DNA from: Escherichia coli
Lineage (GTDB): Bacteria; Pseudomonadota; Gammaproteobacteria; Enterobacterales; Enterobacteriaceae
DNA: 64,000 nt
Strand: one strand, 5' to 3'
Assembly: GCF_017348835.2 (NCBI RefSeq)
Contig: NZ_CP071375.1
The notes beneath the pieces are model-generated. The model worked only from the letters and a program-made list of their open reading frames with translations. It made no database searches and was not told the origin of the DNA. Below, in pieces: positions 2,283 through 5,236 of this stretch; the stretch's first letter is position 1, and the number at the start of each line of letters is the position of its first letter. The position numbers and the translations under genes are program-made.

Positions 2283-2290
2283 TTCCAGAC

Positions 2291-2316
2291 GCGCCATCGT
2301 TAGATGGCGCTTTTTA
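2291..2316 (+). terminator. intrinsic terminator downstream of ydcL
   Basis: GC hairpin gcgccatc-gtta-gatggcgc followed by TTTTTA, 9 nt after the ydcL stop. Confidence 0.7.
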
Positions 2317-2805
2317 TCCGGTGCGCCGTAAAACCCCGTCCTTCAGGGCGGGGATATAAGGCGCGGTTTTCCACCTAACAGGTGTTTGCTGTTGTTCAAT
2401 GTATTGGCGGATGACGGATATTGGCGCACCTCCGCAGCTACTGGCAAAATAGCCAGGACTCCACAAAACGCCTTTGTAGTAATACCTGACTGCAATATCT
2501 GGTCGATCTCGTCGCAGTAACCTACCCGATACGCCTTTGAGGCTGTTTACCAGACTGGATATCGCCAGTTTGGGAGGTTAGTTAATTAACAAATGGACGT
2601 GATCTGGTTCGCCATCCATTTCAACCAGTTCAGCTTCAAAATCAGCACATACATTTGAAAAGTAACTGCGTAGTTTTTCTGTCGCGTCATGGTCAAAAAT
2701 CTGGCGTCGGTATTTGGTGACAAAGACCAGGTGAACATGCATCAGGGAAACACAATGCCTTCCACGCCGGATATCGGTTTCTTTTTTCACAGACCAAAGT
2801 ATCAT
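2314..2805 (-). pseudogene. IS200-family TnpA (Y1 HuH transposase) interrupted by one in-frame TAA
   Basis: 75-aa ORF 2578-2805 with HuH-type motifs (HVHLVFVTKYRR, DHVHLL) stops at TAA; the same frame continues downstream with TnpA-like C-terminus (SLKGVSGRLLRR, LWSPGYFASSCGGAPISVIRQYIEQQ). Confidence 0.65.
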
Positions 2806-2812
2806 TTGACCT

Positions 2813-4021
2813 GTGAAACGATTACAGGCATTTAAATTCCAGTTAAGACCAGGTGGTCAACAGGAGTGTGAAATGAGGCGCTTCGCAGGCGCATGTCGTT
2901 TCGTTTTCAATCGTGCTCTGGCACGTCAGAATGAGAATCATGAGGCAGGTAATAAATACATCCCTTACGGGAAAATGGCTTCCTGGCTGGTTGAGTGGAA
3001 AAATGCCACTGAAACGCAATGGCTTAAAGATTCTCCCTCACAGCCATTGCAACAGTCACTGAAAGACCTTGAGCGGGCTTACAAAAACTTCTTCCGGAAG
3101 CGGGCTGCTTTTCCCCGATTCAAAAAGCGGGGACAGAATGATGCATTCCGCTACCCGCAGGGCGTTAAGCTCGATCAGGAAAACAGCCGTATTTTTCTGC
3201 CGAAACTGGGCTGGATGGGCTACCGGAATAGCCGTCAGGTCACGGGTGTTGTGAAAAATGTCACTGTCAGCCAGTCCTGCGGTAAGTGGTACATCAGTAT
3301 TCAGACAGAAAGTGAAGTATCCACTCCGGTTCACCCTTCAGCATCAATGGTCGGGCTGGATGCTGGCGTGGCTAAACTCGCCACGCTGTCAGATTGCACA
3401 GTCTTTGAGCCTGTAAACAGTTTTCAGAAAAACCAGAAGACGCTGGCGAGACTTCAGCGACAGTTAAGCCGCAAGGTCAAATTCAGCAACAACTGGCAGA
3501 AGCAGAAACGCAAAATACAGCGACTGCATTCCCGTATCGCAAATATCCGCAGGGACTACCTTCACAAAGTCACAACGACCGTCAGCAAAAACCACGCAAT
3601 GATAGTCATTGAGGATTTGAAGGTCAGCAACATGTCAAAGTCAGCAGCGGGTACGGTCAGCCAGCCGGGGCGCAATGTCCGGGCAAAATCAGGTTTAAAC
3701 CGTTCGATACTGGATCAGGGCTGGTATGAAATGCGCCGCCAGCTTGAGTACAAGCAGCTCTGGCGTGGCGGTCAGGTGCTTGCTGTTCCGCCAGCGTACA
3801 CAAGTCAGCGTTGCGCGTGCTGTGGTCATACAGCGAAAGAAAATCGCCTGTCACAAAGTCAATTCAGATGCCAGGTATGTGGATATACAGCGAACGCCGA
3901 TGTAAACGGCGCTCGTAACATTTTAGCGGCGGGGCACGCCGTTCTTGCCTGTGGAGAGATGGTGCAGTCAGGCCGCCCGTTGAAGCAGGAACCCACCGAA
4001 ATGATTCAGGCGACAGCCTGA
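2813..4021 (+). CDS. insQ: TnpB (IS605 OrfB family, RuvC-like RNA-guided nuclease)
   Basis: 402-aa ORF with GTG start; RuvC-I GLDAGV, RuvC-II IVIEDL, zinc finger CxxC...CxxC, Ruv[12 protein letters not shown]. Confidence 0.9.
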
Positions 4022-4060
4022 ACGTAGCAGGGATCCACGTCCTTCAGGGCGTGGAGGATG

Positions 4061-5236
4061 TCAATATCGGTTTCTGTCAGCGATTAAATTCAACACCACG
4101 TAACAAACGCCTCCGGCAATTAATCCCCAGAACGCAGAACCAATCCCGACCAGCGTCAATCCACTTGCCGTTACCAGAAATGCCACCACCGCCGCGTCGC
4201 GCTCACGCTCATTATGCAGCGCCTGATACAAACTTCCGCCAATGGTACTCAACAGCGCCAGACCTGCCAGCATCTGGATCCAACTTACGGGCAGGGCAGC
4301 CATCATCCCGGTAATGGCACTACCAAACAGACCTGCGAGCAAATAGAAAATGCCTGCAACGGCAGCTGCCAGCCAACGTTGATCTTTATCCGGATGCGCT
4401 TCCGGGCTTTGGCAAATAGCCGCGGTGATTGCCGCAATACCGACGGAATAAACGCCGAAAGGGGAAAAAACCAGTGCCAGCAATCCAGTAAATACAATTA
4501 ATGGCGAAACAGGAGCCGAATATCCGGCGGCTTTCATTGCTGCGATACCCGGTGCGTTTTGCGATGCCATCGTCACCAGAAAAAGGGGGAGTGCAACGCT
4601 CAGGCTGTGAGCAAACGCAAAATCAGGGGTAATATAAGTGGGGAGAACGGGTTTAAAGACAACATCAGTTGTGACAACGTCACCTTGCGCGATAACGATC
4701 ACGATCCCAATAATCATCGCGGCAATTACCGCATAGCGCGGCGCAACGGCCTTGGTTGCCAGCCATACCAGCAACATACTGCCACACAACGTAAATTGAC
4801 CGTCCAGACTGGCAAACGCCTGTAAACCAAAGCGTAATAAAATCCCGGCAAGCATTGCCGCCGCAAGCGAGTGCGGAATAATGCACATCAGACGAGCAAA
4901 GAGTCCCGTTATGCCGCAGAGGACTATTAACGCGTTGGTGACAATAAAAACGCCGATGGCTTCGTTAAGTGTTAGTCCCTGCAATCCGGTGACCAACAAA
5001 GCCGCGCCAGGCGTTGACCATGCGGTGAGAACAGGTACGCGATACCATAATGTCAGAGCCAGCGTACTGACGCCCATTGCCAGCCCCAGCGCCGTCATCC
5101 AGCCAGAGATTTGTGCAGTGGTGGCTCCGGCGACAATCGCTGCTTGCCAGATTATTGCCGCTGAACTGGCGTAGCCAATTAATACCGCCAGAAACCCCGC
5201 CAGTAGCGTGGGTGGAGGAACAGAAAACAGACGCAT
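4061..5236 (-). CDS. ydcO: YdcO BenE-family inner-membrane transporter
   Basis: Polytopic membrane ORF; start placed at the ATG preceded by GAGGT (MRLFSVPPP); the longer ORF start at 5359 runs into upstream sequence and is less likely. Confidence 0.85.
   Translation of the reverse strand: MRLFSVPPPTLLAGFLAVLIGYASSAAIIWQAAIVAGATTAQISGWMTALGLAMGVSTLALTLWYRVPVLTAWSTPGAALLVTGLQGLTLNEAIGVFIVTNALIVLCGITGLFARLMCIIPHSLAAAMLAGILLRFGLQAFASLDGQFTLCGSMLLVWLATKAVAPRYAVIAAMIIGIVIVIAQGDVVTTDVVFKPVLPTYITPDFAFAHSLSVALPLFLVTMASQNAPGIAAMKAAGYSAPVSPLIVFTGLLALVFSPFGVYSVGIAAITAAICQSPEAHPDKDQRWLAAAVAGIFYLLAGLFGSAITGMMAALPVSWIQMLAGLALLSTIGGSLYQALHNERERDAAVVAFLVTASGLTLVGIGSAFWGLIAGGVCYVVLNLIADRNRY

Follow-up and report, generated by a model that had tools for sequence, protein, structure and literature searches.

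Does the copy of IS609 that lies between ydcL and ydcO in Escherichia coli still encode an RNA-guided nuclease system after the loss of its transposase, and at what DNA would such a system be aimed? We addressed this question in a stretch of 64,000 nucleotides of E. coli DNA (NCBI RefSeq assembly GCF_017348835.2, contig NZ_CP071375.1), which is called the window below and to which the coordinates refer. IS609, the TnpB family and its mechanism are established, and the locus is annotated in the reference genome, so it is already known. In K-12 MG1655 (NC_000913.3) the annotation at this locus reads 'insertion sequence:IS609', with the tnpB gene insQ (b1432), whose product is named 'putative RNA-guided DNA endonuclease InsQ', and with the tnpA remnant as the pseudogene yncK. 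A first-pass annotation of the window had proposed an IS609-like, catalytically intact TnpB with an omega-RNA at the right end. What is added here are the exact boundaries, the transposon-associated motif (TAM), the predicted guide and a covariation-supported scaffold model for the copy found in K-12 and BL21. We consider it likely that this chromosomal member of the IS200/IS605 family combines a dead tnpA with an intact insQ/tnpB and a flank-guided omega-RNA aimed at the empty site.

The insQ/tnpB gene occupies positions 2813–4021 on the + strand, starts with GTG and forms an intact open reading frame (ORF) for 402 amino acids, as had been described; the assignment comes from NCBIfam, Pfam and structure alignment. 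InsQ scores 382 bits against NCBIfam NF040570, 'RNA-guided endonuclease TnpB family protein' (cut-off 100), and NCBI names the protein family after InsQ/TnpB. The domain set of a TnpB is complete, with the N-terminal HTH/REC-WED part, the RuvC domain and the zinc-ribbon TNB, and Pfam recognizes HTH_OrfB_IS605 (PF12323, residues 1–48), OrfB_IS605 (PF01385, 162–277) and the Cas12f1-like TNB (PF07282, 304–370). Using HMMER, residues 3–376 were aligned with ISDra2 TnpB of Deinococcus radiodurans (8bf8/8exa; E 2e-54). In the ISDra2 protein, D191, E278 and D361 form the RuvC centre, and C331, C334, C351 and C354 are the zinc ligands (PMC10097598). The InsQ residues D183 (motif GLDAGV at 181), E267 (IVIEDL at 264) and D363 (DVNGARN at 363) align with the former, and the cysteines C334xxC337...C353xxC356 correspond to the latter, so that the D/E/D triad and the CCCC zinc finger are in register in the two proteins. 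These cysteines are invariant in 71 InsQ homologues from other genomes. At the 121 columns that are at least 95% conserved in these homologues, InsQ has the consensus residue every time (121/121), and the ISDra2 alignment shows no substitution of its catalytic Asp/Glu/Asp. Thus, the three RuvC motifs and the CxxC...CxxC motif listed in the first-pass annotation are all present. There is no sign of inactivation in the InsQ sequence, and nuclease activity is predicted. Known domesticated TnpB-like repressors (TldR) lack the nuclease residues. InsQ does not resemble TldR or other nuclease-dead TnpBs, being full length at 402 amino acids with the triad and the zinc finger kept.

To place the ends of the element, the IS609 region was searched with BLAST in 5426 complete E. 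coli genomes, which gave three classes of site: IS609 at ydcL/ydcO, IS609 elsewhere and the empty site. The region 2283–4100 is 100% identical to strain PE164 and 97.7–98.6% identical to sampled strains with IS609 at the ydcL/ydcO locus. The window element shares 98.6% identity with its BL21(DE3) counterpart at the locus, and with the K-12 annotation of the same place the 'IS609-like' label proved right. The boundaries were set by comparing one empty allele (strain MS6198) and two insertions at other loci. With a slash for the junction, the empty allele reads ...GATGGCGCTTTTTAT/TATCGGTTTCTG..., which can also be written ...GCGCTTTTTAT/TATCGG..., and the occupied allele reads ...TTTAT/CCGGTG...GGATGTCAA/TATCGG.... 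No target duplication is seen between the empty and the occupied site.

The left end of the element (2318–2373, +) starts at 2318, as placed by the empty site and the other insertions, and is conserved in the 32 related loci compared at this end. These loci, like the 72 compared at the right end, come from a genome-collection scan that gave 80 loci with 58–95% protein identity to InsQ. Immediately before the left end lies TTTAT (2313–2317, +), the predicted TAM and left cleavage motif, which the first-pass annotation had left unnamed. TTTAT also precedes both IS609 copies at other loci, and related elements have TTTAT or TTTAC ahead of the left end. The left subterminal hairpin CCCCGTCC-TTCA-GGGCGGGG (2334–2353, +) has the segment AAAA (2330–2333, +) just 5' of its foot, and across the 32 related loci the last base of the TAM, T or C, covaries with the last base of AAAA or AAAG in this segment. 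At the right end, the hairpin CCACGTCC-TTCA-GGGCGTGG lies at 4035–4054 (+); the hairpin at 4036–4055 in the first-pass annotation is real, with its position one base too far to the right. The element ends in GTCAA, a boundary that the empty site bears out, and the terminal TCAA (4061–4064, +) is the right cleavage site. The sequence GGATGTCAA is invariant in the 72 related loci and the sequence diverges completely right after it. Subterminal hairpins, a short motif at the 5' side, the lack of target duplication and a Y1 tnpA, here a remnant, are the features of IS609 found in this copy.

The ends can be compared with those of IS608 of Helicobacter pylori. IS608 inserts 3' of TTAY without target duplication, has TCAA at its right end and carries subterminal hairpins; in the work of Barabas and Guynet, the 4 nt lying 5' of the foot of the hairpin are reported to match the site of cleavage. 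The tracking of TTAT/TTAC by AAAA/AAAG across the relatives of IS609 follows the same cleavage-site rule. The window element differs from IS608 in that its genes are divergent and its transposase is inactive. For an IS609-type TnpB purified with its omega-RNA, a paper of 2026 took TTAT as the TAM.

The right-end boundary at 4064 puts the guide at 4065–4080 (+), where the flank supplies the predicted 16-nt sequence TATCGGTTTCTGTCAG, antisense to the last codons of ydcO. The length follows ISDra2, in which a guide of about 16 nt is taken from the flank and the omega-RNA derives from the tnpB 3' end together with the right end (PDB 8bf8, 8exa, 8h1j). The proposal that the guide is read from the 3' end of ydcO was thus borne out by the empty allele and the other insertions; the end at 4075 given with it covers 11 of the 16 guide nucleotides and fell short of 4080. 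The flank TATCGGTTTCTGTCAG is identical in all eight ydcO-locus copies compared. The only TAM-plus-guide lookalike in the window is the occupied site itself, with TCAA in place of TTAT, and no second target for the predicted guide was found in these 64 kb. Since the occupied site is preceded by GTCAA and not by TTTAT, the element is not its own target.

The first-pass annotation had placed the omega-RNA in the tnpB 3' end and the right-end hairpin, and a covarying structure at about 3926–4064 on the + strand, whose 5' end is uncertain, agrees with this. The predicted scaffold, drawn from covariation and a covariance model, begins with stem 1 (3926–3931/3937–3942, loop GGGCA at 3932–3936). It is followed by a RAGATH-18-like stem (3948–3952/3985–3989) with inner helices 3956–3958/3976–3978 and 3960–3963/3972–3975, by stem 2 (3996–3997/4030–4031), by stem 3 (4001–4003/4023–4025 and 4006–4011/4016–4021) and by stem 4 (4035–4042/4047–4054), all on the + strand. 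Stem 4 is the right-end hairpin, and seven of its eight pairs show compensatory changes. In the 72 related loci, GGATGTCAA is preceded by the hairpin and by two conserved blocks, AGGAAU and GAAGCAGGAACCC.

Covariation was measured in two alignments, with partners slid along the alignment and 500 shuffles per alignment as controls. The first, made by MAFFT from 31 near-colinear sequences, was not fitted to the structure; 90.3% of its cells are paired, compared with 32–46% for slid partners, and changes on both sides occur in 17 of the 41 pairs. Its covariation score of 0.282 exceeds the 0.051–0.120 of slid partners and was reached by none of the 500 shuffles. In this count lower stem 3 was one base out of register (helix 63% paired), which was corrected for the model. 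The second alignment, of 82 sequences, was fitted to the model and leans towards the proposed structure; here 96.1% of cells are paired (slid partners, 37–49%), both-side changes are found in 28/41 pairs, and the score is 0.366 against 0.042–0.107, again with 0/500 shuffles reaching it. The covariance model has a single match in the 64-kb window, at 3915–4064 on the + strand with 170 bits, and found no second copy of the scaffold there. Four covarying helices are within the tnpB coding sequence (3926–4025), upstream of the subterminal hairpin, and G-U pairs are frequent when the scaffold is read as the + strand. Covarying helices inside tnpB, beyond the hairpin read as DNA, together with the many G-U pairs point to a + strand RNA. 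Thus, a conserved structure at about 3926–4064, which we predict to be an omega-RNA scaffold, is strongly supported by covariation.

A pseudoknot of the stem-1 loop with the tail (3933–3936 with 4059–4062, +) is also proposed. The loop, GGRCA in the relatives (3932–3936), is complementary to UGUC (4059–4062) just before the guide, and G3932 faces A4063. The third base of the Gly codon that overlaps this loop is a purine in 72/75 sequences, which means that pairing with U4061 is kept.

Other folds were considered. RNAalifold, applied to the raw MAFFT alignment of 72 sequences, returned stem 1 and fragments only, since insertions in the loops of stems 3 and 4 had put the pairing partners out of alignment. 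A helix ACAUUU (3918–3923)/GGAUGU (4056–4061), likewise suggested by RNAalifold, was left out of the model: it is in competition with the pseudoknot, the invariance of its 3' strand means that it cannot be tested by covariation, and in the ISDra2 structure the tail pairs with the stem-1 loop. Folding of the single sequence led to another fold, at a modest z-score of -2.3, and was not used as evidence.

Among the relatives, the right end itself varies. In many betaproteobacterial elements the loop of stem 4 has an insertion of 35–45 nt with extra nested hairpins (loci L031, L037, L041, L042, L047, L052, L057, L060, L065, L068, L069, L073, L074, L076, L078, L080 and L082 of our collection), and the foot of stem 4 and GGATGTCAA are kept. 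In an Alcaligenaceae metagenome-assembled genome (MAG; L070, about 2745–3100), the right end is broken after GGATGT by a sequence beginning GTGCGCCC. Just downstream of the break, Rfam recognizes group II intron domains (RF02001, 101 bits; RF01998, 45.9 bits), so that a group II intron sits among the final bases of the scaffold. In a Hahellaceae MAG, a further region (L028, 3847–3971), some 1.1 kb downstream of the main element, fits the omega-RNA model weakly (29.6 bits) and may represent a solo right end or a remnant.

The state of the transposase gene is quite different from that of insQ. The Y1 transposase gene tnpA (2374–2805, -) is a pseudogene with a nonsense change TAT>TAA at codon 76 (2578–2580) and a 1-nt deletion near the normal stop, located by alignment with L003, an intact copy of 143 amino acids. 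Its fragments at 2578–2805 and 2314–2466 (-) match the NCBIfam IS200/IS605 transposase NF033573, and PGAP flags an 'internal stop' pseudogene in the identical strain PE164. The window copy is non-autonomous, with no functional transposase predicted. We compared eight ydcO-locus copies from divergent E. coli strains, with L003 as the tnpA reference. The lesion Y76* is found in the window (PE164), H10 and SC492, with a 5-bp deletion in addition in H10 and SC492; L96* is found in K-12 and BL21, where no further lesions were seen; and E62* is found in KD602, STN0717-20 and N1193, with a 1-nt deletion in addition in KD602 and STN0717-20. This distribution of lesions indicates that tnpA at the ydcO locus has been inactivated at least three times independently across E. 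coli lineages. All eight copies have a tnpA pseudogene, and all eight have an intact insQ (1209 nt). The K-12 element resembles that of the window in its locus, its boundaries, the 402-aa InsQ ORF and the tnpA pseudogene. It differs in the lesion, which is L96* in K-12 and BL21 and Y76* in the window, and at 20 nucleotides in insQ; K-12 and BL21(DE3) are two synonymous changes apart in this gene.

Outside the ydcO locus, IS609 copies of many strains have an intact tnpA, for example that of strain 319 at the yjfZ/ytfB locus. In strain ECSC054, a copy at the tsx/yajI locus (L004, 1569–1994) shares Y76* with the window copy. The presence of Y76* at two loci implies either mobilization in trans after the inactivation or gene conversion between copies. 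Some relatives have no tnpA and consist of tnpB only (L006, L025, L049 and L068); their left end is 82–114 nt upstream of tnpB, compared with the usual distance of about 500 nt.

At the population level, the occupied right junction is present in 3264 of the 5426 genomes (~60%) and an intact empty site in 2048/5426 (38%). The genomes with the empty site include at least one O157:H7 genome (PV15-279) and strain MS6198.

We infer the working of the system as follows, including transcription, processing, RNA binding, cleavage and the outcome in retention or homing. A transcript sense to tnpB would span the final ~95 nt of this gene together with the 43-nt right end, and would continue into the flank. 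Trimming would give an omega-RNA of about 150–160 nt, whose scaffold (~3926–4064) would be bound by TnpB and whose last ~16 nt (4065–4080, TATCGGTTTCTGTCAG) would serve as the guide. The target would be TTTAT followed by TATCGGTTTCTGTCAG, that is, the empty ydcL/ydcO junction remade on excision; alternatively, an empty allele could arrive by recombination. The RuvC centre D183/E267/D363 would cut the empty site, and recombination with an occupied copy would restore or spread the element.

Several observations weigh against such a system. Excision depends on a transposase made by another IS609 copy, as the tnpA in cis is dead. The cells of the proposed pseudoknot are 96.7% paired, but its support comes from conservation and complementarity, with one double change only. 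In the window copy, an A-C mismatch (3957/3977) interrupts an inner helix of the RAGATH-18-like stem. A consensus scan found no sigma-70-like promoter for or within tnpB on the + strand, a result that is uninformative. No Rfam family matched at its gathering score even at a permissive E-value; the covariance-model search that had been suggested for the scaffold thus gave a match with our own model and none at threshold with Rfam. A literature search on insQ/IS609 omega-RNA, in which a TnpB-mining screen of ISfinder elements was not covered, found no work on RNA or cleavage that dealt with the chromosomal copy of E. coli. In the 2026 paper, the purified IS609-type TnpB did not come out best in a trans-cleavage screen. 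Finally, the pairwise dN/dS (ratio of nonsynonymous to synonymous substitution) of insQ in the eight ydcO-locus copies, 0.19–0.37, rests on few substitutions, and sequence exchange between loci is possible.

Some of these points would also fit a decaying relic, in which insQ is intact only through the short time elapsed and the RNA structure is inherited and out of use. Such a relic could explain why all of the ydcO-locus copies examined have a tnpA pseudogene, why no + strand promoter-like site appeared in the scan and why one helix of the window copy is mismatched. Internal stops occur in tnpB at six related loci of other species (L015, L016, L019, L021, L062 and L083), which means that intactness of tnpB is not universal in the family. 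However, the eight copies have at least three independent lesions in the 432 nt of tnpA and none in the 1209 nt of insQ, and the dN/dS values given above also speak against decay. The scaffold has changed less than the remainder of tnpB, with a divergence of 0–1.3% against 1.4–2.1%. In other lineages the mismatched pair 3957/3977 is repaired in two ways, as G-C in STN0717-20 and L004 and as A-U in KD602 and N1193. We therefore regard decay as improbable.

Another possibility is that the structure is not a guide RNA at all and acts as a single-stranded DNA fold of the transposon end for TnpA, or as an mRNA 3' structure that stabilizes or regulates tnpB. The subterminal hairpins of the IS200/IS605 family are read by TnpA as DNA. 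The right hairpin (4035–4054) has a near-identical counterpart at the left end (2334–2353), and covariation alone cannot separate an RNA from top-strand DNA. Nevertheless, the four covarying helices lie 40–140 nt inside tnpB, and the left end has no counterparts of them. Further, the layout matches the solved ISDra2 omega-RNA. In ISDra2, stem 1 holds the 5' strand of the pseudoknot in its loop, as is proposed for IS609; in both, stems 2 and 3 and a terminal hairpin follow, and this hairpin has a UUYA loop, lies about 10 nt before the guide and is followed by a short tail. The ISDra2 pseudoknot joins the stem-1 loop to bases -6 to -3, with a G:A pair to which G3932/A4063 would correspond. The two systems also differ: the TAM is TTGAT in ISDra2 and TTTAT in IS609, the proposed stem 1 of IS609 has a 5-nt loop, and IS609 has an extra RAGATH-18-like stem-loop (3948–3989) between stems 1 and 2, which makes its scaffold about 140 nt long compared with 116 nt in ISDra2. 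In addition, tnpA of IS609 is divergent from tnpB, and with 7 bp between the two start codons (2805–2813) each promoter must sit within the coding sequence of the other gene.

The Rfam near-matches point in the same direction against a structure other than a guide RNA. On the + strand at 3894–4074 the best local matches, at the 3' end of tnpB, are RAGATH-18 (25.4 bits, gathering threshold 44.9), HgcC (22.2/50) and sot0042 (18.9/88). All three are of the guide-RNA type, and all three scores are under the gathering thresholds, so that the matches served as a lead and no more; the scaffold RNA is not a member of RAGATH-18, HgcC or sot0042. The RAGATH-18 consensus CCUGUGGAG...GAAGCAGGAA is reproduced almost exactly at 3948–3991. 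RAGATH-18 is the guide RNA of IS607 TnpBs (PMC11061315). HgcC and sot0042 are transcripts that overlap the 3' ends of tnpB genes, and sot0042 is a sense-overlapping transcript of IS1341-type tnpB. On this evidence, a non-guide role for the structure is very unlikely.

It is just as hard to believe that InsQ and its RNA have been co-opted for a host function, such as RNA-guided DNA binding or antisense regulation of ydcO. In favour of this, some 60% of E. coli genomes keep the insertion with a lost tnpA, the ydcO 3' end would face the guide and any read-through RNA in antisense, and the ydcO stop codon was altered by the insertion, but the RuvC triad and the zinc finger are fully kept in a full-length protein, the guide is the mere flank, as in mobile copies elsewhere, and 38% of genomes are without the element.

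The insertion also has effects on its neighbours. The genes around the element in the window are tehB, ydcL, ydcO and sutR, with IS609 between ydcL and ydcO. The intrinsic terminator of ydcL has its stem at 2291–2310, and TTTAT, which is host sequence, is its U-tract (region 2291–2317); IS609 was thus inserted exactly at the end of the terminator common to the convergent genes ydcL and ydcO. The TAM overlapped the stop codon that ydcO had before the insertion (empty allele L002, 1535–1537: ...AAC CGA TAA), and the insertion destroyed this codon. The ydcO ORF on the minus strand now ends at 4061, and its present stop TGA (4061–4063, minus strand) is the complement of the right-end TCAA. As a result, the YdcO C-terminus reads ...NRY in occupied strains compared with ...NR in empty ones.

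Common E. coli hosts for TnpB/Cas12 interference assays carry this intact endogenous tnpB and the predicted guide. The occupied/empty polymorphism is a ready natural system in which to examine, in the native host, the model that TnpB serves transposon retention (homing). The repeated independent loss of tnpA with insQ and the scaffold kept suggests a further reading, which we put forward only tentatively and think rather less likely than not to be correct: IS609 at the ydcO locus may be a transposase-independent, self-preserving TnpB/omega-RNA module that persists because its guide targets the empty allele. If this is true, any site that had lost the element precisely, or had received an empty allele by recombination, would be cut and then returned by repair to the occupied state. 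The locus would in that case act as a natural chromosomal system of homing or allele drive and as a barrier to recombination in its vicinity.

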